From Candidatus Thorarchaeota archaeon (lineage in GTDB: Archaea > Asgardarchaeota > Thorarchaeia > Thorarchaeales > Thorarchaeaceae): DNA of 64,000 nt. Shown in pieces: positions 9,735 to 30,578 of this stretch; within the stretch, counting starts at the first letter, position 1, and the number at the start of each line of letters is the position of its first letter. Below the pieces are notes generated by a model, which saw only the letters and a list, made by a program, of their open reading frames with translations, made no database searches and had not been told where the DNA came from. A program made the position numbers and the translations under genes. The stretch is taken from contig JAGSHN010000027.1 of assembly GCA_029855935.1 (NCBI GenBank), forward strand, positions 32,001 to 96,000, read 5' to 3'.

Positions 9735-9741
9735 AGGTCGT

Positions 9742-10698: not shown

Positions 10699-10702
10699 TG
10701 TG

Positions 10703-11386
10703 ATGGTGACGCCATTGACACGCAGACTCTCAGCCTTCGACCTGCACACGCACACTATCCACTCCAAGGACGGACTCACTCCGCCAAGGGATCTCTTCAA
10801 GATAATGCGGAGGAAGAAGCTGCGTGGCGTCGCTGTCACGGAACACATCCGGCCGTCATTCACACGGCCCATCGTGCGCGAGAACAAGTTCCTCATCCCG
10901 GGATGTGAGCACAAGTCGTCAGACTACGGCGAGATCATAGGCCTCTTTGTGACAGAGCGTGTGGAGAACAAGACGTTCGTAGAGATTGCCGAGGACCTCC
11001 ACGACCAGAACGCGCTCACCGTCCTCCCACATCCCCGAGATCCATTGAGAAAATACACAGCACTTCGTCGAGGACTTCCTGACGCGCTGATTGTCAAGCA
11101 TATCGACCTCGTCGAGGGGATAAACTCGCGTTGTGTGCTGCCATCCTTCAACAGAAGTGCGCAGCGGCTTGCGAGACGCCTGGGAAAGCCTATGACGGCA
11201 GGCAGCGATGGTCACAGCTTTCTAGAGATAGGCCACGCTAGGACGTGGCTCGCCGACGTAGAGAGCGTTGACGACATCTACGAGGAGCTGAAGGCTGGCA
11301 GAACCTGGATCTCGGGCCGGCCATCGTTCCCACTGTGGCAGGTGCCAACGATGATGTGGCAGAGGCTGAGGAGGTTCGCTCATTGA
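10703..11386 (+). CDS. PHP-domain metal-dependent phosphoesterase
   Basis: DLHTHT.HS.DG, AVTEH, IPGCE, LPHP, VEGINSR, AGSDGH. Start is ATG 10703 or TTG 10715 (GGTGA SD). Confidence 0.88.
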   Translation: MVTPLTRRLSAFDLHTHTIHSKDGLTPPRDLFKIMRRKKLRGVAVTEHIRPSFTRPIVRENKFLIPGCEHKSSDYGEIIGLFVTERVENKTFVEIAEDLHDQNALTVLPHPRDPLRKYTALRRGLPDALIVKHIDLVEGINSRCVLPSFNRSAQRLARRLGKPMTAGSDGHSFLEIGHARTWLADVESVDDIYEELKAGRTWISGRPSFPLWQVPTMMWQRLRRFAH

Positions 11387-12438
11387 ACGAGACAGACAAC
11401 ACGACAAGAGAGTCCTTCATCAGTGTTCACAAGCTTGTGCTGTTCGTCATTGCGGGCGTGGCGGTCTATCTGGCCATCGGCCTGTATGGCAAGTTTGACC
11501 AGATCGCAGCCGCGATCAACAGCATTCCGTGGTACTGGGTGGTCCCCGCTATGATGGGGCTCTCATTCCTCAACTACGCAATAAGATTCATCAAGTGGCA
11601 ATACTATCTGCACAGGATCGGTGTCAACCTCTCCAACTCCGACTCGTTCAGCGTCTTCCTCGCGGGATTCACTCTGACCGCGACCCCCGGAAAGATTGGC
11701 GAGGCGGTCAAGGGGGTCTTCATCAATAGACTCGACGGCACACAGCTCGCCAAGACTGTCCCCGTCGTCGTCTCCGAGCGTGTCACTGACCTGCTGGCTA
11801 TGATCATTCTTGCGGCGCTGGGATTCATCTTTGGTCTCTCCGGCGGCGAGCAGATGTACCTTCTGCTCCTCCTCGGGGCCGTGGCCCTCGTGGGCGCTTT
11901 GATCCTCGGTCATAGCGCGTTCTATCAGAGATTCGTTAAGAAGATGGTCTCTTTTGGGCCACTGAAGAGGTTTCAGGACAGCTGCGATGTGATCGAGAAC
12001 ACGATGGTCCGCACGTTGGGGCCGCGCCCGATGGTTCTTGCCACTGCAGTGAGCATACCCGGTTGGTTCATGGAATGCCTCGAGCTGTGGCTCCTTCTCA
12101 GCCTTCTCTCCGGTGCAGGACTGCCATCGCTGACACCTGCCTCGCTGCTGCTACTGGCGCAGACGACCTTCATCCACGCGGCTGCGTCGACCGTCGGAGC
12201 TCTGCTCTTCTTCCTACCTGGCGGTCTTGGCGGATACGAGCCATTCGCGATATACGTGATGGAGTTCGTACTAGGTCTCACTGCATCGGTCGCGGGCGCA
12301 GCGACAATACTGATCCGCTTTGTCACACTCTGGTTCAGTGTGATGGTCGGCTTCGTTGCGGCTGGGATTGTTACAAGGAGGGCACGTTCCAACAGGCCTG
12401 CTCCTGAGAGCGACAGCCGAGAGGACGACACGGTCTGA
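11383..12438 (+). CDS. Lysylphosphatidylglycerol-synthase-TM / UPF0104 flippase-like membrane protein
   Basis: RFIKWQYYL, TPGKIGEAVK, SERVTD, LPGGLGGYE, LIRFVTLWF. TTG 11383 overlaps the PHP stop, with a GAGGAGG SD upstream. Confidence 0.85.
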   Translation: MNETDNTTRESFISVHKLVLFVIAGVAVYLAIGLYGKFDQIAAAINSIPWYWVVPAMMGLSFLNYAIRFIKWQYYLHRIGVNLSNSDSFSVFLAGFTLTATPGKIGEAVKGVFINRLDGTQLAKTVPVVVSERVTDLLAMIILAALGFIFGLSGGEQMYLLLLLGAVALVGALILGHSAFYQRFVKKMVSFGPLKRFQDSCDVIENTMVRTLGPRPMVLATAVSIPGWFMECLELWLLLSLLSGAGLPSLTPASLLLLAQTTFIHAAASTVGALLFFLPGGLGGYEPFAIYVMEFVLGLTASVAGAATILIRFVTLWFSVMVGFVAAGIVTRRARSNRPAPESDSREDDTV

Positions 12439-13693: not shown

Positions 13694-16600
13694 TCAGTCG
13701 AGGTCAAGCCCAATACTGCGCAACAGTGCCTCAAGGTCGGCCTTTGAGAGTGTCTTTGCCTGTTCGAGTATGATCTCAATCTCATCGGGACCTATGCCCT
13801 TCTGCTCCAGTCTCCTGCGCAGTTCCTCAAGCTGCTCCGGATGCTCCGCCAGGGCCGGCTCACGGACCTCCTGTACCTTACCCTCGGCCTCGGCAATGGC
13901 CTCGGCTCGACGCTGCTCCTCCTGGGCGATGACCTCCCGGAGGAAGCCGACACGCTCGCTGGGCTTCATCCTCGCGAGGTCAGACCTGAAGGCCTCAATC
14001 TCCTCGTCACCAAGACCGGTCAGCTGAGCGAGGTACTCCAGTAGCTCCTCGACCTCTGGTACCACAGCCTTGATTGGATATCCATCAACATCCTCCGACT
14101 CCTTGGCGAGGTTGACAGGAGCCAGCTCTTCATTCGCCATCTCTAGTAGGACGTCCTGCCGCGACCTCACAGGTGGTGCCTTGGGCACCTTGCCGCGCTT
14201 CAGCGCGCCGAGCATTCTGTTGATGTAGCGGATCATCTTTGGCACGCTGAGAACCTTGACATAGAGTAGGAGCAGTAGCGCAAGGATGACCAGAGAGGAG
14301 CCACCGTAGACGGCCACGTTCTGAGCAAAGATCTGCGCCTCACTTGGGCTGGAGTAGATTGTGAATGCGACCTGCTGTGAGACGAAGTCGTCCTTTGAGA
14401 GAGTGACGACAAAGTAGAACGTGCCGGGGTCAGTCACCTGCACAATGAAGACGTACGTGCCGTTGCCAGTGTTGCGTGTGAAGTCGGGGTAGAAGGTGAG
14501 ATTTCCATCGCCACTAATGCCGACCTCATAGTCGGCGTCGTCAATGCCCACGTTGTGGTCGAGGTCCCAGTACTGGACCGTTATCTCAAGACTCGCTCCT
14601 GGGTAGGTCCGAATCTCCTGAGTGGACACGTAGTAGGTCGTCAGCACCTGACGTACCGTGATCTGCACGGTCTTCACCGGGATGAGATAGTAGGGCCCAG
14701 AGAACACAAGATCGACTCGGTAGGTGTCAATCGGCAGGTCTCCGCTCACTGAGAGGAGGTAGGAACCGTTCTCCATCTGGGTCAGAGGAGCAATACCGAT
14801 TCCCTGCCAGTGAGCCTCGGCCACAAGATCAGTGATGATCTCGTCTGTAAGGTCATTGCGCACCGTGAACGCCAGAGAGGCGGTCTCATTGATAGGCAGC
14901 GAGTACGCTCCGACGCCGAGTATAGTGGCCGGAGTCCTGAGCATCACAAGGTTTAGCTCGATTGTGCCAGTCGCATAGTTTGGCACAGTCATCGACACTG
15001 ATACGATGTAGGTACGTGGATTGGTCACATTGACGACCACTGTGATCAGGTACGTGCCATTGCCGAGGTCGGTCACAACAGCGGGGCCACCAGACCAGCT
15101 CGCCGTCACTGAGGCACCGACCACGGGCTGATCGTTGTGGACGTCCCAGTACAACGTCCTGAACTGCACGGTGTCGCCGTAGTAGCCGGACAGAGTCGGC
15201 GCAGTCGAGTTGAGTACCGTGGGGACCTCGAAGACGTTGAATGACACTGTGCGTCGTGCTGTGGCGTAGCCATCCCGGGCTGCAATGACCGACAGCTCAA
15301 GACTGCCAGTGCTGAGCCGACTGGTGTTCACGGTTGTCACATATGTGCCATCAGGCTGCTCGTGGAGCAGACCTGACAGACCGCCCACCACGTAGGTCAC
15401 GCTCGCGCCCGTGACTCGTGTGCCCACAAAGGTATCGTTGTATTCAACAACGAGCTGGACAATGTCACCATAGTATGAGTTGACGAGTATCGCGCCACCA
15501 TTCAGCGTGAGCGATGTCGGTGTAGGCAATACTATGATCGTCACAGGAGTGTCGAGGAAGTCGTAGTTTGGTGCCAGAGCATGTAGTGTCGCCTGATAGT
15601 CGCCAATGGCGAATCCTGTGGAGTTGATGTAGCCGACGTAGTACCCTGGCGTACCGTTCGCATACAGGTGCGCGACTTTGTCGCCCCACAGGAGCGTGAC
15701 ATTGGCATCCTCGATCGGTACATTCCGCGCTGTGGCATTCAGGTACACCCAGAACTCGTTGAGGCCCGACGGATAGACATCCACAACAGAGGACATCGCC
15801 ACTATCGATCCCGAAGCCTTTGTGACAACCAAGGTAAAGGTTGCAGAGCGGGGCTGATAGAACTGCTTGGACGCCACGACCACAGGCTCGTAAGTACCAT
15901 ACCTCTGAGTGGCGGTGTCTAGATGAAGGACGTAGGTGCCGTTGCCAAGGTCGACAAAGGGATAGACCGTACCGTTCCACTGCAGCTCCACCGTCATCTC
16001 TGGGACGGGCGTATTCGTCAACGCCTCGACGACATCGGCGCGAATATCAATGAACTCGCCCCACTCAGCATAGTATGTGGTCTTTGATAGAGTGAGATCG
16101 ACTGTCAGTGCTGCAGGCTGGATCATCACAGTCGCTGTTGCCTGGCGGTAGTCCGTCTTCGTCGCCCACACGGCAAAATAGTACTGCTGAGCCAGCAGAC
16201 CAGTCGTATTGATGGTCAGCTGATAGACGCCACCACCTATCTCCATAATCGTGACCGGAGTGCCATACAGTGACGTCCAGTTGGTCTCCACCGTGGCCCC
16301 AGTCACAACAGTGTCGTGGTCGGAGTCGTACAACGTGACATTGACCACATGTAGGGCTCCCACAGGTAGTGAGGCTGGCGATGGTGCCTCGGTGACCAGT
16401 GTAGTCTGGATGAGCCGGATCACTGCACGGATGTCATACGCCGAGCGCTCAGCATAGTATGGATAGCCCGGGCGACTCGCAGTGAGATTGAAGAAGATAG
16501 AGCCAGTACCGAGGAACTGCGAGGTGGGTATCTCAAGGAGGTAAGAACCGTCGCCGTTGTCGGTGATGTTGTAGATGCCCGGCGAGATATTGAGGAATGC

Positions 16601-19600
16601 GACCGACACGGACGCACCGCTTATGCCAGCTCCGGAGATGAAGTCTGTGTACTCGAACACGATGGATATGTTGTCGCCGTAGGGCGTGGTACCGACAAGC
16701 GGAAACAGTATCTGAGTGGGCCGCTCGGTCGTCGTGGCATAGGTCGTCGCGTTGCGTGCTGCATAGTACGGAGGCTGGCCTGTCTTGTCGATGGTCACAT
16801 AGATGGGAACATTCGATACAAGGTGAGTGGAGTTCAACAGGGTGGAGTTGAAGCTTATCGCGTACTCCGTGCCGAGAGAGGCAAGAGAGTAGTCACCAGA
16901 GCCTATCGGTGTCTGGGCTGGTCCAAAGGTCAGAGCAATGTTCGACTTGGTGATCGATATCGCCTGGCCCGTGAGGAAGTCACTGAACTTGAACTGGAAT
17001 GTCACATTCTCAAGGAACGGTGTGTTGCCCGGCGTCTGGGTGATCAGAATCTGCGTCGGGCGCTCGCCTACACGAATGTAGATCACCCTATGTGCTGGCG
17101 CGTAGAATGGCACGCCCGACCAGCTCAAAGACACATTCACCGGGAAGGCCCCGAGGGAGCCCAGAGACTCACTATCGACGAGAATCCTGAACTGTCCGTT
17201 GCCCAGTGGCACAACCCAGTAGTCAGTGCCCTCAACGAGCGGGCTGACGGATGAGTTTGAGCAGGACACCACCACAGTTGCTCCGTCGATGGGAGAGCCA
17301 TCATTGTCGTCTGTGTACGTGACCACGAAGGTCGCATTCTCAAGGTAGTACGTCAGATCGGGTATCTCATATGCAAGCTGGGTGGCCCGCTCTGAAACAG
17401 CGAACCCGAACACATCGCTGGCATCCGCCTCATAGTTCGAGCCAGTGTAGACAATGGTCGCATTGAGAGTGAAGACGCCATCCGATGGGAACCCTGTGGT
17501 GTTGAGAACGACCTCGTACTGCCCGTTCCCAAGATACGTCACCGTGTAGTAACCTGCCAATGAGGCGTTCAGCGTCAGTGTTCCCGTCATTCCACTGGAC
17601 GACCCAGAGATCAGGTCGGTGTAGGTGAAGACCACAGTCACGTTCATTCCCCACTGGCCCGGCTCGAAGGAACCGTGTGTCAGCTGAGTGTTGCGAAGCG
17701 TGACCCGCAGGGTGAACGACTGGTTTGCCAAGTCCCTGTAGTAAGGCTCACCGCTCCACCCGATGTTCAGGTGCAGCGTGAACGTGCCGACGCCTCCCAG
17801 AGACTGTGTGTCGATCAGCATCGTGAAGAACCGGCTGGAGTCATCGTAGGACAGTGAGTAGGAGACCCAGCCCTCCGCCAGAGAGATCGAGATGGCTGAG
17901 CTGTTGGCAATCCGCTCCGACGAGAGCGAGTCAACGTAGCTGAAATAGAAAGTGGCACTCTCACCAAAGGGCGCAGGCTCAATCGGCACGTAGTCCAGAT
18001 ACGTGAGCCGTTCAAGCACCACGAGGCTGACGGTCATGCTCCTGTTCTCATACAGGGGGGCCTGACCAGAGCGCCACGTGAAGTTCAGTCTAAACTCGAA
18101 TGTCCCAGTTATGAGGAATCTTGATGTGTTGAGCCTGAACTCGTACGTCCCGGGCGATCCACCGAGCTCTGATACGACGAAGTCGGCCTGCGTCACAGGG
18201 TGACCAGCAGTGATTGGTGTGATGTAGACGAACACGTCTCCTGTGGAGTTGGATATGCGGGTTGAGTTGACCTTGTCCCAGTAGACCACCGTGAACGTGA
18301 AGTTCTCAAGATAGTACTTTGCCGTGGGCGCCTGTTCCAAGTAGATGCTCGTGTCAGTACCGAGGATACGCACCGATGTATGGATTGTCCCGTTGTAGTA
18401 CGTCGGTACCGGGCCGGTCCACCGGACTTCGATGGTGATGTCTTTCCAGCCAATCGTTCCCCACTGGTCAGCAGAGAATGTGATGTTGTAGTGGCCTGTG
18501 CCCAGCGTCGAACTCGAGACGCTCCACGTGAGAGTGGCCGTCGGCGACGAAACGGTGATACGGACATACCCGGTGAGGTTGTCGATGCCCACGCCGAGAT
18601 CCAGATCGCGGTACTCCACGAGCACGATCACAGTGCCCGTGTATGGTGTCTGGTCCACAGGCTTGTCAAGCACAAAGAGTGTGTCGTGGCTTCTGATCTG
18701 CACCTCGACAATGAATGTGTGATTCTGATAGTTGGGTCGTGATACGTCGAACTGCACAGTGTAGAAGCCGCCCGGTGAATTGACCGGGTCGTCGTCCTCC
18801 GTGAACAGTGTTATCTCGTACTCACCGGGCGAGACCTCAATGACCGTGTAGTTCTTCTCGCCAGTGGTGTGGAAGCTGGTCCAGTTGCAGACAATCGAGT
18901 TGTTGGCGCCAGTCACCGGCACATTCGAGTCCGTGTCTGTCCACGTCAGACGGAACGAACGCGACTCGCCCACAGGTATTGAGAGCTGATTGGCCGTGTA
19001 GGAGATGGTATTGTAGATCTCGCGTACGTCAACGTACAGGATGAGGCTCTTTGCCACAACAAACGGTGCTGTGGCCTGTACGAGTATGGGGTATTCTCCT
19101 ATCGGGATGCCAGCCGTTGAGAGCGTCACATCATAGAGGCCACCACCGACCTCAGCCACTGTATACGAGGCAGTCCAGTTGCACGTGATGGTTGCACCTG
19201 TTATGCCTGTCCCGTTCACGTTGGTATAGTTGACTCTGAATGTCTGGTCAAGACCAACGGCATTTGAGATTCCAGGATAGTCAGGTGACTCTAGGGTGGC
19301 GTCATAGTAGACGTTGAAGATGATCTGGGCAGTGGAGACGTCATACGCAGTGCGCGACCACGATATGTCCATTGTGAACTGGCCCTTGCCGGGCACAGTG
19401 CTTGTGTCAATGACCTTCGTGTACTCACCGTTGCCGCTATCATCGAATGTACCTGACCCACCAGCCCACGTGTAGCTCATAGTCCCACCCGGGACCAGCA
19501 CGTTGCTGTCTGTGTCATTGACCTTCAGAATCACTAGGACGAGGTTCTCATAGGTGGTGTTGGTCACCCACGTGGACACCGCGTCCGAGAGATATGACAT

Positions 19601-21439
19601 CACAATATTCGAGGTATGTCTGACAGTAAACGGTCTCTTGAAGAAACCGACATTCTGAACAGAGCCGCTTGCCCCCTCGTCGGTGGCATAGGCCTGAACC
19701 ATCCAGTTGCCAGCCGGAGCTGTGGAGCCGTCCATGACAAATACCGAGGAGGTGGCATAGCCCAGAGCGTCCACTGTGGCGTTCTCGGTGTACCAAGTGC
19801 TGCCGTCGGGAGCGAATATCGTGATGTTGACAACCGAGTTTGTGTACTGTGAGCCAGCGTAGACCCGGACCTGGCTGGAGTTGCCCGCACGCAGCTCGAC
19901 AGTGCGCGACCACGTCGCGGTGTTCGGATCATACAACTTAAGGTCTGTGATCATATTGGGCGCAGTGCTCAGTATGCGCCAGTACCCGTACCGACCTGCC
20001 TCGGTCGTCACCTCGTATGCTGAGACGTTCAGGTACCCGTCACCGGGGTCGCCACCACTCCACCCACTGGTGAGATTCTGCGAACTCGTCAGAGGTCGAG
20101 ATACGTTGAACACGTCTCGCGTCGAGGGAATGGTCATATTGAAGAAGTACCTGTTGACGTAGCCCTCGGGGATGTCAGCGTAGAAGTAGTTGGCAAACTG
20201 CGCGTCGGTGCCATTCTGCACCGTAAACGTCTCACCGTAGGCCGTCGGCGAGATGTCGTAGACCGTCAGCGCGTTGTGCCTGCGGGCGAACATATTGATG
20301 TTGACGTCAAACTCCACGATGATGGGCCTGTTAGGTGTGGGATTGGTCGGTGTCGGCCACCACGAGAAGTTCATCGGAATGGGGTTGCCTGTCCACGGCA
20401 TCTGTGGGTCCTGAGTCAGAGAGCCGGTGCCAGTCGTGGTGCCATCGAGGACCGACTCTTCATTCATCTTCAGGTTTACATCTGACGGATTGGCGAGCGT
20501 CTTCACGTAAAGCTCGACATTGTCGAACTTGGCCCTTGGAGCGATGTCAGGATCGTACCCTACGTTCTGCTTGCTCCAGAGGCCCACCTCAATAGACACA
20601 GAGGGCAGGGAGAAGATGTCGCTGGGCACTGACACGAGGCCGGAATCAAACCATGTCTCCTCAGCCCCAATGTCATCGAAGACGAGCTGCCAGACCATAG
20701 AGCCCTCGACACGAGCGTACACTGCAAAGGAACCAGTCATTCCATAGTGGGTGTCATCCCGAGTGTCTGCCCAGTAGTCAAGCCGTAGACCCGCCCAGAC
20801 CACGGGGCCTCTGTCTACAGTCATTGTCTGTGTCGCGTAGGCATAGTCCCCAGCGTCATAACCGTACGGCGCGGACTGCGAGTTGCTGTTGATCTCGACA
20901 TCCACGCACGGTCCGCCACTGGCGTCGCCTGTGGAGTTGTATGACGCTGCAGGAGTGCTGGAGCCACCAGCACCAGTGGTAGCGTAGGTCCAGTCATTCT
21001 GGGTCGCAAAGTCCGGACTATGGACCCACGTCCTGTTCTCGGTGAGCTGAGTCACCTGCAGCTCCGCGTGGTACGCCTCCCAGTCCGGGCCCAGAGACAC
21101 GTTGACCGCAGAGCCGACCGTCGTGTTGTCGGTGTTGTAGCGCAGCGAGACCGCGTCTACAATGGTCGTGCTGTTGCCGTATTCGGCACCAACCCGCGGG
21201 GACGCTATGCCATTCCATTCCACCCAACCCTGGTCTGAGAGAACGAACCTGTGAAGCTCCTCGCCAGGTCCAACCTCGATAGTCTGTCCATTGCCAATGT
21301 CAACTACGCGGTTGGCCCCCTTCTGTCCGTCGGTGGCAGAGGACGGCATCTTGGCCATCTGACCGGCCGAGAGCACAGACACTGTCAGGAACACGAGCAA
21401 CAGGGCAAAGACCACTATCTTCCGCTTCATCTCTCTCAC
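13694..21439 (-). CDS. Giant single-pass cell-surface glycoprotein A: signal peptide, beta-rich head, about 17 Ig-like modules, TM, cytoplasmic tail of about 185 aa
   Basis: Signal peptide KRKIVVFALLLVF; repeated 100-125 aa beta modules (Y.D......I.GA.V...G.G.Y.+.+NT); many N-x-S/T sequons; TM SLVILALLLLLYV; start GTG 21439 or ATG 21430. Confidence 0.9.
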   Translation of the reverse strand: MREMKRKIVVFALLLVFLTVSVLSAGQMAKMPSSATDGQKGANRVVDIGNGQTIEVGPGEELHRFVLSDQGWVEWNGIASPRVGAEYGNSTTIVDAVSLRYNTDNTTVGSAVNVSLGPDWEAYHAELQVTQLTENRTWVHSPDFATQNDWTYATTGAGGSSTPAASYNSTGDASGGPCVDVEINSNSQSAPYGYDAGDYAYATQTMTVDRGPVVWAGLRLDYWADTRDDTHYGMTGSFAVYARVEGSMVWQLVFDDIGAEETWFDSGLVSVPSDIFSLPSVSIEVGLWSKQNVGYDPDIAPRAKFDNVELYVKTLANPSDVNLKMNEESVLDGTTTGTGSLTQDPQMPWTGNPIPMNFSWWPTPTNPTPNRPIIVEFDVNINMFARRHNALTVYDISPTAYGETFTVQNGTDAQFANYFYADIPEGYVNRYFFNMTIPSTRDVFNVSRPLTSSQNLTSGWSGGDPGDGYLNVSAYEVTTEAGRYGYWRILSTAPNMITDLKLYDPNTATWSRTVELRAGNSSQVRVYAGSQYTNSVVNITIFAPDGSTWYTENATVDALGYATSSVFVMDGSTAPAGNWMVQAYATDEGASGSVQNVGFFKRPFTVRHTSNIVMSYLSDAVSTWVTNTTYENLVLVILKVNDTDSNVLVPGGTMSYTWAGGSGTFDDSGNGEYTKVIDTSTVPGKGQFTMDISWSRTAYDVSTAQIIFNVYYDATLESPDYPGISNAVGLDQTFRVNYTNVNGTGITGATITCNWTASYTVAEVGGGLYDVTLSTAGIPIGEYPILVQATAPFVVAKSLILYVDVREIYNTISYTANQLSIPVGESRSFRLTWTDTDSNVPVTGANNSIVCNWTSFHTTGEKNYTVIEVSPGEYEITLFTEDDDPVNSPGGFYTVQFDVSRPNYQNHTFIVEVQIRSHDTLFVLDKPVDQTPYTGTVIVLVEYRDLDLGVGIDNLTGYVRITVSSPTATLTWSVSSSTLGTGHYNITFSADQWGTIGWKDITIEVRWTGPVPTYYNGTIHTSVRILGTDTSIYLEQAPTAKYYLENFTFTVVYWDKVNSTRISNSTGDVFVYITPITAGHPVTQADFVVSELGGSPGTYEFRLNTSRFLITGTFEFRLNFTWRSGQAPLYENRSMTVSLVVLERLTYLDYVPIEPAPFGESATFYFSYVDSLSSERIANSSAISISLAEGWVSYSLSYDDSSRFFTMLIDTQSLGGVGTFTLHLNIGWSGEPYYRDLANQSFTLRVTLRNTQLTHGSFEPGQWGMNVTVVFTYTDLISGSSSGMTGTLTLNASLAGYYTVTYLGNGQYEVVLNTTGFPSDGVFTLNATIVYTGSNYEADASDVFGFAVSERATQLAYEIPDLTYYLENATFVVTYTDDNDGSPIDGATVVVSCSNSSVSPLVEGTDYWVVPLGNGQFRILVDSESLGSLGAFPVNVSLSWSGVPFYAPAHRVIYIRVGERPTQILITQTPGNTPFLENVTFQFKFSDFLTGQAISITKSNIALTFGPAQTPIGSGDYSLASLGTEYAISFNSTLLNSTHLVSNVPIYVTIDKTGQPPYYAARNATTYATTTERPTQILFPLVGTTPYGDNISIVFEYTDFISGAGISGASVSVAFLNISPGIYNITDNGDGSYLLEIPTSQFLGTGSIFFNLTASRPGYPYYAERSAYDIRAVIRLIQTTLVTEAPSPASLPVGALHVVNVTLYDSDHDTVVTGATVETNWTSLYGTPVTIMEIGGGVYQLTINTTGLLAQQYYFAVWATKTDYRQATATVMIQPAALTVDLTLSKTTYYAEWGEFIDIRADVVEALTNTPVPEMTVELQWNGTVYPFVDLGNGTYVLHLDTATQRYGTYEPVVVASKQFYQPRSATFTLVVTKASGSIVAMSSVVDVYPSGLNEFWVYLNATARNVPIEDANVTLLWGDKVAHLYANGTPGYYVGYINSTGFAIGDYQATLHALAPNYDFLDTPVTIIVLPTPTSLTLNGGAILVNSYYGDIVQLVVEYNDTFVGTRVTGASVTYVVGGLSGLLHEQPDGTYVTTVNTSRLSTGSLELSVIAARDGYATARRTVSFNVFEVPTVLNSTAPTLSGYYGDTVQFRTLYWDVHNDQPVVGASVTASWSGGPAVVTDLGNGTYLITVVVNVTNPRTYIVSVSMTVPNYATGTIELNLVMLRTPATILGVGAYSLPINETASLAFTVRNDLTDEIITDLVAEAHWQGIGIAPLTQMENGSYLLSVSGDLPIDTYRVDLVFSGPYYLIPVKTVQITVRQVLTTYYVSTQEIRTYPGASLEITVQYWDLDHNVGIDDADYEVGISGDGNLTFYPDFTRNTGNGTYVFIVQVTDPGTFYFVVTLSKDDFVSQQVAFTIYSSPSEAQIFAQNVAVYGGSSLVILALLLLLYVKVLSVPKMIRYINRMLGALKRGKVPKAPPVRSRQDVLLEMANEELAPVNLAKESEDVDGYPIKAVVPEVEELLEYLAQLTGLGDEEIEAFRSDLARMKPSERVGFLREVIAQEEQRRAEAIAEAEGKVQEVREPALAEHPEQLEELRRRLEQKGIGPDEIEIILEQAKTLSKADLEALLRSIGLDLD

Positions 21440-24400
21440 TCCTCCTCACCCTTCAGCTGCCGCAGCAGCGCGTCTATCTCGGCCTTGGTCAGGGCCTTCG
21501 CCTGTTCCACAATCAGATCTACCTCATCAGGCTCGATACCGAGGCCGAGTAGCTCTTGTCGAAGCTGCTCCAGCTCCTCCTCTGTCAGCGCCCGTGCCGC
21601 CTCAGGTGGCGCCGCCTCCTCGACTTCGGGCGCGGCTGCGACCTCCTTGGCCCGTCTCGCCCGCTCCTGCCTTATGACCTCACGTAGGAACCCAGCACGC
21701 TCGCTGGGTCTCATCTGGTCGAGGTCTGCACGGAGTGTGTCGATGTCAGACTCCGTGAGGCCGACGAGCTCAGCGAGCTCTGCCAAGAGAGCCTCAACAT
21801 CCAAGGCGGACACATCAACCGTCGACGGGGCCACGTCCTCATCCGTCTTCGTTATGTTGACGGGCTCCACCGACTCGTTCATCATATCAAGAATCATTGT
21901 TCTACGGTCACGCACAGGGGCGGCGGTGGGTACACCACCCTTTCGGAGCACACTCTCCATGTGGCGAATCTTGCGCACGAGAGGCGGCACCGAGAGGACC
22001 TTGATATAGAGCGCCGCAAGACCACTCAGCACAAGAATTGCAGCAGCGAGATAGCCGAAGGACGTGAACAGGGCCTGACGCTCGGGCGTCATCACTGTAT
22101 ACACCACGGCCGTGTACTCCGCCGCCTCGTGATCGCTGACGGACAGACGGATGTGAATCTCGTACGTGTTGAGTCCCGGACCAACAAACCCAAAGACATA
22201 GGTCCCGTTGCCCAGGTCGCGATTGAGGTCGGACACCAGTTCAAGTGTCGTCCCCTCGGTGCTGTTGACGGCACCGGGCAGCGGCCTGTCGTGATCAAGG
22301 TCCCAGTATGTCACTGTCACAGTGAACTCCTCACCCTCGTAGAATGTCGATGGATGACTTGCGACCCGCAGCTCGGTGTGGATGAGCCTTATTGTCATAC
22401 TGCTCCTGATCTCAGCGACAGAGTAGTTACCACGGGTCATGGTGACACGGATGGCGTAAGGTGTAGACCGGACCTCCAACCTCTCAATCCCCGTCGCCTC
22501 AGGACCGAAGGCATAGGAGCCGTTGCCCATTGGGACGAGGCTCACTGCTCCAAACTCCCAGATTGCTGCAGCAGTGCAGTTGGTCACGGGCCGGTCATTG
22601 AGTGTGTCCCACAGGGTGAACACGACAGTGTAGTCATCTCCCACTGGGAAGTCCACAGTGGTCGTGCCACGAATCTCCGTGGGTATCGGTCGCACCACCA
22701 ACCTGACTGAGCTAAACGCCGACTCGTACCTGTCACGAGAGAAGGCGAGGAATATGTCGTAGGCAAGAGGACTTGCTGGTTGAATCGTGGAGTTGATTGT
22801 CAGGACGTAAGTGCCGTTGTGGAGATCCACAAGCTGACCTTGTGTCAGACCTATCTCATAGATGGCTGTGGCATTGGTCACTCCCACATCATTGTGAGTG
22901 TCCCAGAACAGTAGGCGGAACGTAGCATTCCTGCCGTAGTACACCTCTACCTGACCACTACCAAGGACATCAATTCTCGTGGGAATACGTAGTACAGTGA
23001 CCACAAGCTGTGTGGTCGCGGGGGTGTGAGCAGCCTTGCTGGCCGTCACAGTCACGACCCAGCCTCTGACATCCAGATTGGCAGTCGGCACAATAGCGGT
23101 GTAATACCCAGGTTGTGTGGCAGGCTGCATCTGGCCCTCAATGTCTGCGATACGGTAGGTCACGTTTGCCTCAGTCACTGGCACCCCGAGATCGGTGTTG
23201 TTATAGTACACCGTGAGGTTGAACGTATCGCCATAGGTGACCGACAGACTTGTGATGCCCTCAAAGGCCAATAGTTCAGTTGATGCCTCTCTCACCTCAA
23301 TCGAGATTGACGAGCTGGCACTACCGTAGTTCGTCGATGTGGCTTGGAACGTCAGCTGATAGCTCCCGACAGGGACATCCGGTACCGACAGCAGGCCCTC
23401 GTACCGAGCAGTAGTGACGTTCCACACCAAGTAGCCACTCCCGCCAGCCCAGCTGAAGGATATTGATCCGACTGGTATCGACGAACCGTTCGCCGCCACG
23501 GTGTAGTAGGCCAGCAGCTCAGTGGTCTGGCCAAGAGTCAGTGTTGACTGACCTATGGACACCACAAGTGAGGCGGGCACCTTCCCTATCCTGATGTCGA
23601 TGTCGACATCACGGGTCTCGTAGTTGGTGAGCTCCGAATGAAACGTGAGTCTGTAGTCTCCAGCCGAGTAGAGTTTGGTCCTGATTGTAACTTGGTAGAG
23701 ACCACCACCGACCTCCGTCAGCACGTAGATGTCGCCAACCATCTTCAGTGTGACGGAGGCACCAGTCACGGGACTGGCATCTCGGAGATCGGACAGCGTG
23801 ACATTGAAGGTCACGAGGTCGCCGTAGATGATGCTCACAGGCGAGAATGTCACGTCGAGGTCCACAGGTACTGGACTGAGGGCGAAGTCCGCCGTCACTG
23901 TCTTGTTGTAGTGGAGATGACGGGAGGCATTGACATGAAACTCGTAGACGCCAGCAGTGAGCCCAGATGTGTCTATTGTCAAGTGATAGATTCCGTTCCC
24001 CACCTCCGCTATCGAGGAGCTGGTGCCATAGAGCGAGGTCCAGTCAGTGACCACAGTGGCACTCTCGATTCCGAGACCTGTCAGTACGTTCGTGAAGTTT
24101 ACATTGAGAATGACTGTGTCGCCGGAATAGTAGGTCACACCAGCTGGGACCGTCACCTCAAGGCTCGTGGACACAGGGTTCACAATGACAGAGAAGAAGA
24201 CATTCGTCTTGTTCTGATAGAACGGCGAGCCGGTGGAGGTGATGTTGAAGACGAAGTGATATCGTCCTGTCGAGCCAAAGGTGCTGGTGTTGACTCTTAT
24301 CTCATAGATGCCGCCACCAAGGTCCAGCACCCAGCTCTGAATGGGAGTCACATTCAAGCATTTGACGGTCACGGTGGCACCCGGAATCCCAGCGCTGGTG

Positions 24401-27400
24401 TCGTAGTCCGCAAACTCGATCAGTGCAGTGGCGTTGTACATGATGTCTGCGGGCGGCGTGGAGACCACTGCAACTTGCGAGGGGCGTCCCGTGATGGTCG
24501 CCTCCGTGGTGGTTGTGGAATTAGAATAGTACGGTGCAGTGTCACCCCAGTAGAACTGAACCTCGATGGGGTGACCCTCGACTAGAACAGAGGTTAGTAT
24601 CGTGGAGTTCAAGGAGATACGGTATCCGGTAGCAGTTAGGCTGAGGGCGTAGTCACCTGCGGAGAGCGGTATGTGAGATGCACCGTGAAACAGCAACAAG
24701 ACATCCTTGCTGAGAGTGACAGACGAACCGTCCAGACCGTCCGTCGCAGCCACAACAAAGGTGACATTGTTGAGAAACGGCGTGTTGAGAGGCGACCTCA
24801 CCACAGACAGGTGGAGGGGACGTCTTGATACCTCGATGGCCACAGAGAGCGTTCTCTCGAGGTAGTAGGGCTGTCCGGTGTAGTTCGCCACTATGTCGAT
24901 TGTGTATGAGCCGAAATTCCCAAGGGCCTGTGTCGAGATTCTCACACGATATCGTCCAGAACCGAGATAGTCAACCCAGTAGTTCACGCCCAACTGGAGC
25001 CCCGTTGCTGCAGTCGTACAGGAGGCATAGATCGATGCGCCAGCGATGCCGACATTCGTTGTGTCATCGAAGTAGAAGACTGTGACGTTGGCCTGCGTGA
25101 GATACGGCGCGGGACCCGGCAGCTCGCTTGTGAGCTGAGTCCTGCGTTGGACCACTGTCAGATAGAATGAGTCTGTGGCGTTCTCACAGTAGCGCGTCCC
25201 ACCATAGGTGATGCTGACATTGATGAGGTAGGTTCCCAGCTGACCGAAGGCACTCGTATTGAGAACCAGCGTGTATGTACCGTCAGCATTGTCCTCGACC
25301 GAGTAGTAGTCTTTCAACCAGGAGTCAAGCGTGAGATTGCCACCGTTCATTCCCGCGGTTGAGTAGTCATCGAGATCCCTATAGGTGAACAGCAGGGTGA
25401 GATTCGCGGCAAACTGAACGGACGTGTAGCTACCGTGCACAAGCTCTGTGTGGCGGTATCTCACGGTTATCGGTACCTCTACAGAGGTCCGGTTTTGGTA
25501 GTAAGGTGTGCCGACCCAAGTTATGTTGATGTGGAACACGCGAGTCCCTGGTGCCCAGGACGAGGTGTCTATCTCCAGATAGAACTCACCTGTTGCGTCG
25601 CCGCCGTAGTATAGTGTGTACGTCACAGCCTCAACAATCTCGATGTGCAGGCTTGAGGAGTTGAGAATCGGAGCGCCAGTGAGCGAGTCACGATACGTGA
25701 GGGTGAGATTGACCAGCTCGTCGTACGGTGTCACGGGCAACGGCGTCCACTCAACGGTCGTCTGTCTCTGTGTGGCACGCACTGTGACAATCAGAGTCTT
25801 GTTCTCGTACAACGGTAGAGCGCCCTTTGTCCAGTTGAACCATACCTCAAGGTCGCAGGATATTGGCCCACTGAGGAAGGCCGAGTCGAACTCGAACCAG
25901 TACTCACCCGGTTGATTGTCGGGGTCGACCTCGTAGATCATCATCTTTGACTGATCAAGGGACTGGCCGGGTGTGAGCACGGTCACAGTGATATGGACAT
26001 TTCCTGCATACGAACCCGTCGAGTTGACGATGCCAGTCTGTGCGCCGACATCGTAATAGACCAGCGAGAAGGTGATGTTCTCATCATACGGCGTCATAAC
26101 AGGGTTCACACCGATGAAGAGCTCGGCCGGGGTGGCTGTCACGACCACGGCGACCTCATCAAGATAGAGCGTCTCGTTGGTGTACTTCTCAGTGGGTCCT
26201 GTCCAGTTGGCGTGGATTGTCACGTTCTTTCCGCCAATCGAGCCCCACGAGTCAGCAGGGATGAGGACCAAGTACTCTCCCGGTGCGGAACCGTTGGTGA
26301 CGGTGTACGGCAACGAGGGGATGTCCGCGACTGCATAGATATAGACATAGTAACCTGTGGCGGAGCCGTTCTCTATCCCAACCTCCGCATCGACATCCCA
26401 GTACATCACTCTGATCTCAATCGTCCCCGTGTAGGGTGTGGGTTCAACCGGATTGACAAGATACAGCGATGTCAGATGCGTCCTCAGTTCGAGTTCAATA
26501 TAGAATGTATGGTTCTGAACACCGCCCTGCTCCACATCCACCTGCACCGTGTACAACCCGAGCGTGTCAGTGTCGACAGAGTAGATTGAGATGTTGTACT
26601 CGCCAGGAGTGGACGTCTCGACGACGGTGTAATGACCGTGTGAGCCAGTCCAGTTCAGCGTGAAGGCGCTCTCTGCACCTGATATTGGGAGGTTGTGGTC
26701 GGTGTCCCGATACGTGACCGTAAATGATGCGACGTAGCCAACCGGTAGAGAGAGATGACTTGTTGAGGGGGACGCCGACGTGAACAGCTCTCGAACCTGA
26801 ACAGACAGCTCAATCGTTCTGCGCTCCACAAAGTCCTTTGACGCCGTTATCTGGACCACGTACGTCGCCAGTGGGGCGGTACTCGTGTCGAGCGACAGTG
26901 TGTAGTAGCCCGGATTCCCTGCCTGTGGAGTGACCGTGTAGGTGCCGAGTGTCCAATTGCAGGTTATCGTGGCCCCAGTGATGCCGTTACTCCTCTGATC
27001 CTCGTAGTACAATGTGAGGTCAGCCGAATATCCCTTTGGAACATCGATGCCCGGCGCGTCGGGTGAGAGCAAGTCACTCAAGTAGATCACATTGATAGTA
27101 AAGGTGGCCGAAACGGAATCGTAGTATCCCTTTGTCCATTGCAGGGCCACGTCGTATTGCCCATTGGATGCCAAGAGCGATGTGTTCAACGCAATGTTGT
27201 ACTCGCCAGTACCGAGGTCATTCATAGTACCCGACCCGGCCGCCCAGCTGTATGCCATCACACCCTCTGGGAGAAGTTCGCCGTTGTCCGAGTCGTTGAC
27301 TCGCACCTGGAGAAGAACGACATCGCCATAGGTCACGTTGACACTCCACGTCGTGCGACCCTCAACAGGATATGTCACAGACATGACGGTACCGTGCTGG

Positions 27401-30120
27401 ATGCTGAAGCCTCGCCTGAAGTACCCAACATTATGGATCTCTCCTGCGGACGCGCTGTCGTTGACGAAGGCCTGGACCTCCCACGGGCCAACTGAGGCGT
27501 TGTAGGCTCCCAGAGTCACGGTGTCCGTCACCGCATATCCGTTCGAGTCAACCGTTGCAACCATTGAAGTCCACGGATTTCCGAGCGGGTCGTATATCGT
27601 GAAGCCAACAATGTCGTTGGCGTAGGCTGGGGACAGCGTGGCTCTGAACCGTGTGACATCATTGGCACGAAACGTCCTGGTGCGCACCCACGCCGAACCG
27701 TCCCAGACCTCAAGGTCGCTTATCATATTCGGTGACCAGCCCTTCAGATACCAGAAGCCGTTCTGAGCGGTGGTGGTCACCTCGAAGGCTGACACATTCA
27801 GAAGCCCATCTCCCGGGTCTCCATAGCTCCATCCATACGTCAGGTTCGTGTATCTGTCAGTGGGCTGCCCCACGTGATCGATGTCACGGTTGAGCGGAAT
27901 TGACACGTTGAAGAAGAACTTGGGCTCATAACCACCGGGAACAGCTGCGTAGTGGTTTGTTTCCCAGCGGACCGCCGTAGCATTCTCGACGTAGTAGCTG
28001 TCACCCGATGCGAAGTTGGCTGTGTTGTAGACCGTATCGAGGCCATACCTGCGAGCATATGCCGTTACACTCGCATCCATTGTAACCCGAACCTCAAGAT
28101 TCGGGACCGGAGGCAGTGGGACCGGGGTCCACGTGAAGTTCGCATAGGCCTTACCCTTGGTCCACGGCGTCGGTGGACGATACGTGACAACGCCCTCGCC
28201 ATACACCGGGGTCGAGCCCTGCATCACGTTCTGAACAGGAACTCCGTCCATCGTCAGGTTGACCTGCTCTGGAGTGGCCTTGGCCTTGATGTACAGGACT
28301 ATGTTGTCGAACCGACCCTCGGGCAAGATATCATTATATCGATACCACTCCTTTTGTGTGACCCTCAGGCCTATCATCAGGGGAACGTTCGGCAGCGACA
28401 GGGATGTGTAGTCCACCGGCACCAAGCCCGTGGAGTACCACGTGTTATCATCAGCGATGTAGTCGAACTTGGAACTCCAGAGATAGGAGCCGCCGTAGTC
28501 GGGATCGCCGACAGAGACGAAGAGCTCGAAGAAGCCGGTCATATACGATCCCCATCCGCGGCAGTCAGCATAGTAATCGAGCATGAGGCCGGCCCACGTG
28601 ACCTCCCCACGATTGATTGTCAGATCCTGTCGGACGTACGCCTTCTCACCCGGGCTATACCAGAAGCCGTACAGGCCAGAGACCGGGTCGGAGTGATAGT
28701 ATCCTCCAATCTGAGCGATGATCGCCCCGTCTCCAGCGGCGTGTCCATTCGGGGACCAGGTGATAGACGTGCGAGATGTGCCATCGCGTTCGACTGTATA
28801 CACGTAGCCACTGGCGTTCACGGCAACTCCATAGATGAATCTGAACTGGGCGTTTCCTGTGCCATCGCCACCCCAACGTCCCGAGTACGAACCAGTCTGT
28901 GTAAAGTACTGCACACGGTCGTTGCCCATGTCAGCCACGTAGATGGTACCATCAGAGGCAACATCAACGTCAGCAGGATCTCGGAAGGACCCTGCCGATC
29001 CACTACCAGCGAAGCTTCCGCCCGAACCGACAAGGCTGAGGTAGGTCCCCTGATAATTGAACCTCTGAACCCTGTTGTATGTGCTGTCGACAACAATTAC
29101 CTCATCATTGTTTGGATTGACGCCAATTCCCGTTGGGGCGTTGAACTGACCAGTACCAGTCCCCTGAGAGCCCCAAGAGCCTACAAAGTTGTAGTTAGAG
29201 TCAAAGTACTGGACACGGTCATTGCCCATGTCCGTGACATAGATGTATCCGTTGACGCTACCTACCGCCACGTCAACCGGACCGTGGAATTGACCGTTGC
29301 CCGTACCGGGACTGCCAAATTCTGCAATGAAACTACCAGAGGAGTCGAAGACTTGGATTCTGTCGTTACCGTGGTCCACAACATACACGTGGCCCGAGGA
29401 GTCCACATCGATGCCGAGCGGTCTGTCGAACTGACCCTGACCTGTGCCGAATGATCCCCACTGTGTGACGAAGTTTCCTGAGGCATCAAAGACCTGAATG
29501 CGATGGTTGTCAGTGTCCGCGACGTACACATACCCAGAGGAGTTGATTGATATGCCCCACGGATTGAGGAACTGTGAGGAGGAGGATCCGCGGGATCCCC
29601 ACTGACCCTGATAGTTGCCCGTAGAGGTGAAGAACTGAACACGGCTGTTGCCCTGAAAGCCGCTCACTGTCCGGTTTGTCCGGAAGGTCCAGTCGTCCTC
29701 GTTGGCGAACCCGTAGTTGACCACCCAGCTCCTGTTCTCCGCTATGTTGCTCACTCTCGACGTGACCTGATACGACTCCCAACCAGAGCCCACGGGGACT
29801 GTCCGCACGGCTGTACTTCTCGCCTGCGTGCTCGGGTCGTAGACCATACCAATGTCCGAGAAGACATCTGTCCGATTACCGTACTCGGCCACGGACAGAG
29901 GGTCCCCTACGCCTGTCACCGAGGTGGGCGCCGTTGAGATCACGTATTTGTAGAGGACCTCATCAGGACCTACCTCCACATACTGACCATCTCCGACCTC
30001 GACCATTCTTGGTCCGGCAGAACTCTGCTGGCTGGCAGGCGGGAGGGGCATGCTTGTCAGGACCGACAACACAAGGGGCACGAATACCAGCACCAGGCTC
30101 AGGCTCCGAACTCTCTTCAT
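21436..30120 (-). CDS. Giant single-pass cell-surface glycoprotein B: paralog of A with an inserted 6-bladed NHL beta-propeller
   Basis: ATG 30120 (MKRVRSLSLVLVFV signal peptide, GGAGG SD); NHL repeats; about 17 Ig-like modules; TM LAAAILVLSGLAALYI; stop overlaps the start of gene A. Confidence 0.9.
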   Translation of the reverse strand: MKRVRSLSLVLVFVPLVLSVLTSMPLPPASQQSSAGPRMVEVGDGQYVEVGPDEVLYKYVISTAPTSVTGVGDPLSVAEYGNRTDVFSDIGMVYDPSTQARSTAVRTVPVGSGWESYQVTSRVSNIAENRSWVVNYGFANEDDWTFRTNRTVSGFQGNSRVQFFTSTGNYQGQWGSRGSSSSQFLNPWGISINSSGYVYVADTDNHRIQVFDASGNFVTQWGSFGTGQGQFDRPLGIDVDSSGHVYVVDHGNDRIQVFDSSGSFIAEFGSPGTGNGQFHGPVDVAVGSVNGYIYVTDMGNDRVQYFDSNYNFVGSWGSQGTGTGQFNAPTGIGVNPNNDEVIVVDSTYNRVQRFNYQGTYLSLVGSGGSFAGSGSAGSFRDPADVDVASDGTIYVADMGNDRVQYFTQTGSYSGRWGGDGTGNAQFRFIYGVAVNASGYVYTVERDGTSRTSITWSPNGHAAGDGAIIAQIGGYYHSDPVSGLYGFWYSPGEKAYVRQDLTINRGEVTWAGLMLDYYADCRGWGSYMTGFFELFVSVGDPDYGGSYLWSSKFDYIADDNTWYSTGLVPVDYTSLSLPNVPLMIGLRVTQKEWYRYNDILPEGRFDNIVLYIKAKATPEQVNLTMDGVPVQNVMQGSTPVYGEGVVTYRPPTPWTKGKAYANFTWTPVPLPPVPNLEVRVTMDASVTAYARRYGLDTVYNTANFASGDSYYVENATAVRWETNHYAAVPGGYEPKFFFNVSIPLNRDIDHVGQPTDRYTNLTYGWSYGDPGDGLLNVSAFEVTTTAQNGFWYLKGWSPNMISDLEVWDGSAWVRTRTFRANDVTRFRATLSPAYANDIVGFTIYDPLGNPWTSMVATVDSNGYAVTDTVTLGAYNASVGPWEVQAFVNDSASAGEIHNVGYFRRGFSIQHGTVMSVTYPVEGRTTWSVNVTYGDVVLLQVRVNDSDNGELLPEGVMAYSWAAGSGTMNDLGTGEYNIALNTSLLASNGQYDVALQWTKGYYDSVSATFTINVIYLSDLLSPDAPGIDVPKGYSADLTLYYEDQRSNGITGATITCNWTLGTYTVTPQAGNPGYYTLSLDTSTAPLATYVVQITASKDFVERRTIELSVQVRELFTSASPSTSHLSLPVGYVASFTVTYRDTDHNLPISGAESAFTLNWTGSHGHYTVVETSTPGEYNISIYSVDTDTLGLYTVQVDVEQGGVQNHTFYIELELRTHLTSLYLVNPVEPTPYTGTIEIRVMYWDVDAEVGIENGSATGYYVYIYAVADIPSLPYTVTNGSAPGEYLVLIPADSWGSIGGKNVTIHANWTGPTEKYTNETLYLDEVAVVVTATPAELFIGVNPVMTPYDENITFSLVYYDVGAQTGIVNSTGSYAGNVHITVTVLTPGQSLDQSKMMIYEVDPDNQPGEYWFEFDSAFLSGPISCDLEVWFNWTKGALPLYENKTLIVTVRATQRQTTVEWTPLPVTPYDELVNLTLTYRDSLTGAPILNSSSLHIEIVEAVTYTLYYGGDATGEFYLEIDTSSWAPGTRVFHINITWVGTPYYQNRTSVEVPITVRYRHTELVHGSYTSVQFAANLTLLFTYRDLDDYSTAGMNGGNLTLDSWLKDYYSVEDNADGTYTLVLNTSAFGQLGTYLINVSITYGGTRYCENATDSFYLTVVQRRTQLTSELPGPAPYLTQANVTVFYFDDTTNVGIAGASIYASCTTAATGLQLGVNYWVDYLGSGRYRVRISTQALGNFGSYTIDIVANYTGQPYYLERTLSVAIEVSRRPLHLSVVRSPLNTPFLNNVTFVVAATDGLDGSSVTLSKDVLLLFHGASHIPLSAGDYALSLTATGYRISLNSTILTSVLVEGHPIEVQFYWGDTAPYYSNSTTTTEATITGRPSQVAVVSTPPADIMYNATALIEFADYDTSAGIPGATVTVKCLNVTPIQSWVLDLGGGIYEIRVNTSTFGSTGRYHFVFNITSTGSPFYQNKTNVFFSVIVNPVSTSLEVTVPAGVTYYSGDTVILNVNFTNVLTGLGIESATVVTDWTSLYGTSSSIAEVGNGIYHLTIDTSGLTAGVYEFHVNASRHLHYNKTVTADFALSPVPVDLDVTFSPVSIIYGDLVTFNVTLSDLRDASPVTGASVTLKMVGDIYVLTEVGGGLYQVTIRTKLYSAGDYRLTFHSELTNYETRDVDIDIRIGKVPASLVVSIGQSTLTLGQTTELLAYYTVAANGSSIPVGSISFSWAGGSGYLVWNVTTARYEGLLSVPDVPVGSYQLTFQATSTNYGSASSSISIEVREASTELLAFEGITSLSVTYGDTFNLTVYYNNTDLGVPVTEANVTYRIADIEGQMQPATQPGYYTAIVPTANLDVRGWVVTVTASKAAHTPATTQLVVTVLRIPTRIDVLGSGQVEVYYGRNATFRLLFWDTHNDVGVTNATAIYEIGLTQGQLVDLHNGTYVLTINSTIQPASPLAYDIFLAFSRDRYESAFSSVRLVVRPIPTEIRGTTTVDFPVGDDYTVVFTLWDTLNDRPVTNCTAAAIWEFGAVSLVPMGNGSYAFGPEATGIERLEVRSTPYAIRVTMTRGNYSVAEIRSSMTIRLIHTELRVASHPSTFYEGEEFTVTVTYWDLDHDRPLPGAVNSTEGTTLELVSDLNRDLGNGTYVFGFVGPGLNTYEIHIRLSVSDHEAAEYTAVVYTVMTPERQALFTSFGYLAAAILVLSGLAALYIKVLSVPPLVRKIRHMESVLRKGGVPTAAPVRDRRTMILDMMNESVEPVNITKTDEDVAPSTVDVSALDVEALLAELAELVGLTESDIDTLRADLDQMRPSERAGFLREVIRQERARRAKEVAAAPEVEEAAPPEAARALTEEELEQLRQELLGLGIEPDEVDLIVEQAKALTKAEIDALLRQLKGEEE
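28781..29650 (-). repeat. Six NHL repeats (beta-propeller) within giant protein B
   Basis: Six units of about 47 aa: G..G.G.GQF..P.G+.V...G.+YV.D..N.R+Q.F. Confidence 0.92.
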
Positions 30121-30578
30121 CTGACAACCTCCGGGTCGCGCACGCTCGACCTTCGGTATGCCCACAAGGGGCCTCCGCGGTTAGACAATCTTCAACCCGC
30201 CAATCCGCCCTAAAAAAGGTGCTGCGCGACAGATGGTTCACAAAACAGTCAGGATTGACAAAAAATCGAAACTCTGTGGTGGGCCTGGGAGCATTGCCCA
30301 GAGCAGTGAACGTAGCCGCAGCTTCAATCCACAGACCGGGGGCAGATTCTTCTCGCAATCATCGGCGTGGCGCCCAGTGCGCGACGGCTCCCAGCAACTA
30401 GTCAGGTCATTCGAATAATGTTAGTCTCGATTCCCGGACGGGGGGTTCGAAAAATACTGGGACGTAGAAACCGTCGTGGAGGGCCCACTGATGTATTCTG
30501 GCGATAGGCCGACGTATGGACTGGGCTCACGCCGAATCTCAGGTCAATCTTCTCAGACGCCCTGATGACGCCTAGAAG

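Follow-up and report, generated by a model that had tools for sequence, protein, structure and literature searches.

A conserved and translationally coupled pair of giant surface proteins with 17-module stalks in Thorarchaeota

Locus and gene organisation

The window analysed here is a stretch of 64,000 nucleotides (nt) from a Candidatus Thorarchaeota archaeon (assembly GCA_029855935.1, contig JAGSHN010000027.1, positions 32,001–96,000 of the forward strand), and all coordinates below refer to it unless a contig is named. Its minus strand carries two adjacent genes, here called A and B, for giant type-I membrane proteins. Each protein consists of a head, a stalk of immunoglobulin-like (Ig-like) modules, a transmembrane (TM) helix and a helical tail. 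The features of the two genes, including matches to a hidden Markov model (HMM) of the stalk module and a jelly roll resembling a carbohydrate-binding module (CBM), are as follows.

21436–30120, minus: gene A, giant type-I membrane protein, ~2894 aa from the ATG at 30120
28771–29667, minus: six-bladed NHL beta-propeller of A, residues ~167–465 (Pfam NHL, E 1.4e-26)
27376–28770, minus: head of A, jelly roll and beta-sandwich domains, homologous to the head of B
22078–27375, minus: 17 Ig-like modules of A, residues 931–2696 (17 HMM matches, E 1e-13 to 1e-22)
21985–22074, minus: TM helix of A (hydropathy window)
21439–21984, minus: helical tail of A, predicted to be cytoplasmic, ~180 aa
21436–21439, minus: stop/start overlap, GTGA, with the start GTG of B over the stop TGA of A
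13694–21439, minus: gene B, giant type-I membrane protein, 2581 aa
20495–21052, minus: CBM-like jelly roll of the B head, residues ~130–315 (AlphaFold model)
19598–20494, minus: further beta-sandwich domains of the B head, the last (residues ~494–610) macroglobulin/Ig-like
14333–19597, minus: 17 Ig-like modules of B, residues 615–2369 (iterated HMM)
14231–14320, minus: TM helix of B (hydropathy, AlphaFold model)
13697–14230, minus: tail of B, predicted to be cytoplasmic; basic juxtamembrane helices, then two three-helix units

The frame of gene A is open from a GTG at 30165 (21436–30165, 2909 codons), and translation probably begins at the ATG at 30120, where a GGAGG precedes and a typical signal peptide follows. 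For gene B, an alternative in-frame ATG is found 9 nt downstream of its GTG. In both proteins a hydrophobic segment occurs once near each terminus, the C-terminal one being followed by a basic stretch, and the domain order is common to both: signal peptide, head, 17 Ig-like modules, one TM helix and helical tail. BLASTP aligns the two proteins at 34% identity across 2470 colinear residues. A first-pass annotation of this DNA had described two colinear paralogues joined by a GTGA overlap, with this architecture in both, and the open reading frames (ORFs), the BLASTP alignment, the iterated HMM and the hydropathy profiles agree with it on each count. About 460 nt separate A from the nearest gene upstream, and a convergent tRNA-synthetase gene lies downstream of B, so that A and B form a two-gene unit. 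The sole sequencing run containing this stretch is a DNA run from a hydrothermal-vent metagenome, perhaps the source sample itself.

Conservation of the pair across Thorarchaeota

The A/B head was used to query the genomes of the source family and of a second family of the same order. In the source family, almost all genomes of sufficient contiguity gave two adjacent matches on one contig, as did the second family. Abutting ORFs with A upstream and B downstream are present in at least 20 Thorarchaeota genomes of these two families. Both genes are complete at 13 public Thorarchaeota loci and in genomes G003, G005, G006, G020 and G025, while B is cut by a contig end in G008 and G021. Every copy lying fully within the examined DNA has the head, TM helix and tail, and neither A alone nor B alone was seen in any contiguous assembly. 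A 4-nt stop/start overlap (ATGA or GTGA) occurs at 20 of 22 related junctions, the other two showing a 1-nt overlap and a 4-nt gap. Conservation of the pair was a check set by the first-pass annotation, and the pair is conserved across Thorarchaeia, with A always preceding B. An A/B-type head was not found with the head query in three of the 24 family genomes (G007, G013 and G022), which carry other giants with the same tail.

A tree of 43 full-length copies resolves the upstream (A) and downstream (B) proteins into two fully supported clades with mirrored internal branching. Since the tree includes a genome from the second family, the duplication that gave rise to A and B predates the split of the families. 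One genome (G006) carries four such genes in a row, A1-B1 and A2-B2, with a gap of ~300 nt between the two pairs, which belong to different pair lineages. The presence of two whole pairs in this genome indicates that the pair duplicates or is transferred as a unit. Adjacency in a fixed order, coupled translation, co-presence and two orthologous clades were all found, and these are the operational marks of an obligate two-subunit gene pair.

At the four-gene locus (contig C22; L028, L029), 17 modules were counted in every copy with a complete stalk, and the N-terminus of A1 is cut by the contig start. On a complete Thorarchaeota chromosome (CP070658.1), both genes look interrupted, with open frames of ~1070 and ~1100 aa; the match to the B head ends there after residue 131, and frameshifts, pseudogenes or assembly errors are all possible.

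Sequence identity differs along the proteins, as listed here by region, first among orthologues and then for A versus B of the same genome.

Two three-helix units of the tail: 65–68% among orthologues; 44–46% A versus B
Head and modules 1–11: ~50–62% among orthologues; 29–43% A versus B
Modules 12–17: 38–53% among orthologues; 21–29% A versus B

The tail is the best-conserved region, with an orthologue identity above that of every ectodomain region.

The stalks

The module HMM was iterated from one starting module and finds exactly 17 modules in each protein, with a period of ~100–110 aa (A residues 943–2678, B residues 627–2351). If extended, a stalk of this kind would measure roughly 70–80 nm, judged from typical Ig-domain spacing. 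In an all-against-all comparison, 14 of the 17 modules of A have the module of the same number in B as their best match; the exceptions, modules 12, 13 and 16, lie in the most diverged, membrane-proximal part. The module-by-module colinearity noticed in the first-pass annotation holds to this extent, and it places the origin of the 17-module stalk before the gene duplication. The module number is also kept among relatives, another point that the annotation had put up for checking: all complete copies of A and B have 17 modules, although 16 were counted in a few at the HMM threshold. The stalk modules match no Pfam family above threshold (Invasin_D3 at E 0.03 is below the cut-off), and a profile of the 34 modules weakly matches the Ig-like domains of FdeC (4e9l, E 0.0055) and invasin (5n40, E 0.0062).

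The heads and the NHL propeller

Residues 40–620 of B were modelled with AlphaFold from an alignment of 19 orthologues, giving an all-beta structure with a mean predicted local distance difference test score (pLDDT) of 78. The best match of its jelly roll (model residues 91–276) in VIA-align is an alginate-binding CBM (8zqf, Z 12.8, root-mean-square deviation 4.0 over 169 residues), and more than 20 further CBM, MAM or Eph ligand-binding domains follow with Z of 10–12.3. The fold class is the beta-sandwich seen in CBM4/16/22/36/61, MAM and Eph ligand-binding domains. In the model, the B head carries a CBM-like jelly roll; the likeness is at the level of fold, and sugar binding is at most a prediction. 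The last head domain of B (residues ~494–610) matches a macroglobulin (MG) domain of complement C5/C3 and S-layer Ig-like domains with Z ~11, and has a weak Pfam match to MG2. Scans of Pfam and NCBIfam returned no family for the head, including any curated CBM family, and a head profile gave no match to PDB sequences. A search of the ESM Atlas with the head gave template modelling scores of at most 0.31, to MG2/Big-type proteins and an unnamed Promethearchaeota cluster. The conserved N-terminal hairpin, earlier termed a pro-segment, is unpacked in the B head model (pLDDT below 50).

The one domain of A that Pfam recognises is the NHL propeller, which scores 91.5 bits against a cut-off of 20 (PF01436); the propeller families DUF5128 and SGL also exceed their cut-offs. 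Five full blades and one split blade are legible in the translation, which places it in the NHL family. It sits in the loop where the jelly roll, and with it the head, begins, and its span of ~295 aa equals the size difference between A and B, just as the first-pass annotation had estimated; B has no propeller. The accompanying idea that one propeller-bearing chain defines an asymmetric pair did not survive comparison, as the propeller is absent from about half of the A orthologues, and its distribution on the tree requires at least two gain or loss events.

The tail and membrane topology

Residues 2337–2581 of B, modelled with AlphaFold from 49 sequences, gave a pLDDT of 90.8. In this model a long TM helix leads into two juxtamembrane helices of basic character, and two three-helix units follow. 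An alignment of 16 tails from A and B has 36 invariant columns. The juxtamembrane segment after the TM helix carries the motif S-x-P...R...M...G..P...R, and the three-helix units carry the motifs D-L..M..SER.GF..EV..QE..R and L...G....E.......A..L......ALL.

None of the comparisons with known proteins placed the tail. Foldseek found no match in the PDB at E ≤ 0.001, and the best VIA-align score (Z 7.3 on a 62-residue helical unit) is within the noise for helical models. A shape search of the ESM Atlas gave template modelling scores of at most 0.31, to a sensor-kinase-like layout of TM followed by helices, and a feature search of the Atlas gave no usable match. Matches to Pfam were below threshold, and the tail profile returned spurious short helical matches among PDB sequences. 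A UBA-like identity for the last three-helix unit was considered and dropped, as sequence, profile and fold searches of the tail gave it no support.

N-X-S/T sequons number 68 and 67 in the two proteins, compared with ~25 expected from shuffles. Over 43 proteins of the family, the ectodomain has 2.48 sequons per 100 aa and the tail 0.25, a ten-fold difference. These sequence features indicate that the ectodomain is outside and glycosylated and the tail cytoplasmic; the prediction for the tail, which had been made before, follows from the strongly basic stretch after the TM helix together with the low sequon density.

The tail family and other giant proteins

A profile of the tail retrieved 169 representative proteins (E up to 1e-3) from 1.84 billion. 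In all long proteins among them the tail occupies the C-terminus, and the longest has 5543 aa. The few named proteins are hypotheticals of Thor-, Hermod- and Promethearchaeota, and in some fragments the last helical unit occurs in four copies. The tail was also surveyed in 150 sampled genomes of the phylum in addition to the source genome. It is present in all 32 sampled genomes of the source family. Two other families of the 150-genome sample gave strong matches, several more gave weak ones and others none. By sequence the tail defines an orphan family, named here the Thorarchaeota giant-protein tail, with no match to a known family or fold.

A third tail-bearing giant of the source genome lies on another contig (C16:131853–140546, minus; L003–L009), and has at least 2897 aa and at least 22 modules, its N-terminus being beyond the contig end. 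Its orthologues in relatives (L036–L040) are unpaired proteins of 4431–5055 aa with 29–35 detectable modules of the same type. Relatives also have other tandem pairs of tail-bearing giants that are of unequal length (for example 3187 with 4086 aa and 3192 with 5599 aa).

Such unequal pairs recur as a second kind of tandem pair beside A/B (~3200 aa with 4000–6200 aa; for example G008:C3:171528–182102, G018:C3:96736–109013, G023:C13:29997–42253, G104:C1:423272–433855 and G131:C6:35578–47888), and the source genome seems to be without this kind. The contig of the A/B pair also holds further giant ORFs, with 1499, 2737, 2221 and 2671 aa (window 44542–49041, minus; C4:10244–24854; C4:170884–178899). 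These have no tail, and the stalk-module HMM gives no match to them.

Neighbouring genes

The gene next to A on its upstream side is the following.

30579–32756, minus: upstream neighbour of A, 725 aa, membrane-anchored protein with a HExxHxxGxxH zinc-protease motif

The protein has a signal peptide, a conserved MGY(F/Y) after the zinc-protease motif and a C-terminal TM helix with a basic end, and matches no Pfam or NCBIfam family. The HExxHxxGxxH motif is invariant in seven orthologues. In G003, G009, G012 and G008 this gene immediately precedes A, as it probably does in G014, whose contig ends within A; in G005, G011 and G025 it lies within ~8 kb of the pair. By its sequence, it is a candidate metzincin-like protein that is possibly associated with the A/B system. 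The plus strand of the window (5731–12438) has a GH38 alpha-mannosidase gene and, behind it, a dense run of DUF362, UbiA-prenyltransferase, PHP and LPG_synthase_TM genes; together they make up a cluster for glycans or lipid-linked sugars beside the genes of the sequon-rich surface proteins.

Discussion

Several known systems resemble the A/B pair in part. Bacterial fibrillar or giant repeat adhesins (invasin/intimin/FdeC, MpIBP-type RTX) also have a long stalk of ~100-aa all-beta modules with a distal lectin-like or propeller ligand-binding region, and the fold matches of the B head include repeats from a large adhesion protein (6xi3, Z 10.7). They differ in being anchored in the outer membrane or cell wall, whereas A and B are type-I membrane proteins with a structured cytoplasmic tail of ~180 aa, and come as two paralogues in fixed association whose repeat number does not change; Pfam scans of A and B returned no adhesin family at threshold. 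A and B are laid out like eukaryotic type-I adhesion receptors (integrin alpha/beta, classical cadherins, Eph receptors, RPTP-mu, teneurins), with a jelly roll or propeller at the far end, a stalk of beta-sandwiches, one TM helix and a cytoplasmic tail that is conserved. The best fold matches of the head include Eph ectodomains and MAM-Ig-FN modules, and two chains made together recall integrin alpha/beta. In contrast to these receptors, A and B have no sequence homology to them and, in Pfam and NCBIfam scans, no FG-GAP, VWA/beta-I, cadherin EC, kinase or phosphatase domain. The same scans detected no integrin family, and the propeller is of the NHL type and missing in many A orthologues; Pfam returned no cadherin family, and the protocadherin matches of a PDB profile search have E > 0.4. 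The resemblance to integrins and cadherins is an analogy of layout only. Archaeal S-layer (surface layer) glycoproteins (Sulfolobus SlaA/SlaB, the Ig-like S-layer protein of Nitrosopumilus, haloarchaeal proteins) are likewise N-glycosylated, contain Ig-like domains and are sometimes co-encoded in pairs, and there are fold matches to 8c8o, 7ptp and 8qox. S-layer pairs, however, are not paralogous, end at or just past the anchor and form lattices, whereas A and B have a large conserved cytoplasmic domain and a filament-like stalk of 17 modules. No paper was found that describes this pair or its tail, and a survey of huge proteins treats archaeal giants in general terms only. New here are the cross-genome census of the pair, the mirrored tree, the fixed number of 17 modules, the conserved overlap, the CBM-like fold of the head and the comparison with unpaired tail-bearing giants.

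A and B are clearly a functional unit made in coupled fashion. That the two proteins also act together, probably as a heteromer, is the favoured reading (probability about 0.5), and is considered most likely in view of the unbroken pairing, the invariable order and overlap, the duplication of the pair as one unit and a module number that stays constant in either chain. According to this reading, A and B would be ancient, obligatorily co-inherited and translationally coupled giant N-glycosylated surface proteins of type I in Thorarchaeia. The 17-module stalk would project from the cell, tipped by a lectin-like jelly-roll head, to which chain A would add an NHL propeller in some lineages. The chains would be made at ~1:1 and would probably form a heteromeric fibre that binds glycans or other ligands on partner cells or particles, and the tails would dock this fibre to a cytoplasmic partner common to other tail-bearing giants. 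The analysis shows the architecture, the topology signals and the conservation of the pair with its order, overlap and module number, whereas physical association of the chains, the type of ligand and the cytoplasmic partner are inferred.

A number of observations weigh against joint action. No direct sign of contact between A and B was seen; a complex prediction of the TM helix and tail of A with those of B, each with its own alignment and run without controls, scored 0.00 and speaks neither for nor against binding. The matching cysteines pointed out in the first-pass annotation do exist, but are conserved in only 47–84% of copies, are replaced by T, S, A or V and show no co-variation between A and B. 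Interchain disulfides at these positions were therefore dropped from consideration, and the shared cysteines look like inherited core positions rather than obligatory cross-links. Being lineage-specific, the NHL propeller is an accessory and offers no basis for a core asymmetry of A and B. The equal number of modules was inherited from the duplication and so is weaker evidence than it appears. Moreover, at only ~20% identity between modules, recombination at the module level would be rare on mechanistic grounds, and the constancy may be partly neutral. Against this, the unpaired giants of the same genomes do vary in module number, which lends more weight to the constant 17 of A and B. Stand-alone giants carry the same tail, which consequently needs no adjacent paralogue, and the unequal tandem pairs of relatives show that equal length is no rule of the wider family.

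Some of these points would fit A and B being independent fibrillar adhesins that do not touch, co-transcribed for the same process, with diverged heads for different ligands and separate anchoring via the common tail. The heads of A and B are 32–39% identical to each other and 46–55% identical among the orthologues of each, which is compatible with two maintained specificities; the propeller that comes and goes on A alone and the tail of the unpaired giants can be read in the same way. Paralogues of independent adhesins are usually variable in copy and repeat number, while A and B never occur apart where contiguity permits them to be seen, keep their order and 4-nt overlap, were duplicated as a whole pair in one genome, and have a frozen module number in both chains where an unpaired relative varies. 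On this evidence independent adhesins are possible, though less likely than joint action. The pair could also be a structural part of the envelope, a canopy or glycocalyx of fixed height in place of an ordered S-layer, in which 17 modules set the thickness, the tail fastens the layer to the interior and ligand binding is secondary. The dense N-glycosylation sequons and the even conservation along the stalk (~50–60% for modules 1–11) would suit such a role. In cultured Lokiarchaeia an ordered S-layer is lacking, and 'complex surface proteins' stick out from the single membrane (PMC9834061). Archaeal S-layers may be two-component, as with SlaA/SlaB, and Ig-like S-layer proteins are among the fold matches. 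An essential wall sits oddly with the family genomes in which the head query found no A/B-type head yet other tail-bearing giants occur, the distal CBM-like and propeller domains are typical of ligand binders, and neither abundance nor a lattice supports a canopy, which is accordingly improbable.

The first-pass annotation had gone further than joint action and proposed a signalling receptor. Here it is not supported, because no enzymatic or known signalling domain occurs in the tail, which unpaired giants also carry. A stronger version, a heterodimeric Asgard adhesion receptor whose tails couple contact with a partner cell to actin or to an ESCRT/ubiquitin machine, and whose shedding or maturation is controlled by the neighbouring metzincin-like protease, seems unlikely. 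If true, the lineage closest to eukaryotes would have a prokaryotic counterpart of outside-in linkage of the integrin or cadherin type.

Cryo-electron tomography of a cultured Lokiarchaeon, whose cell lacks an S-layer, has revealed complex surface proteins of unidentified nature, and such proteins of Asgard archaea are presumed to bring about the contacts between cells on which models of eukaryogenesis draw (PMC9834061). The A/B pair and the wider tail-bearing family provide concrete, conserved gene candidates for such surface structures in Thorarchaeia. The structured orphan tail is a handle on the link between the Asgard cell surface and the cell interior, and the contrast between the frozen 17-module length of A and B and the varying length of the unpaired relative amounts to a clean natural experiment in selection for fibre length.

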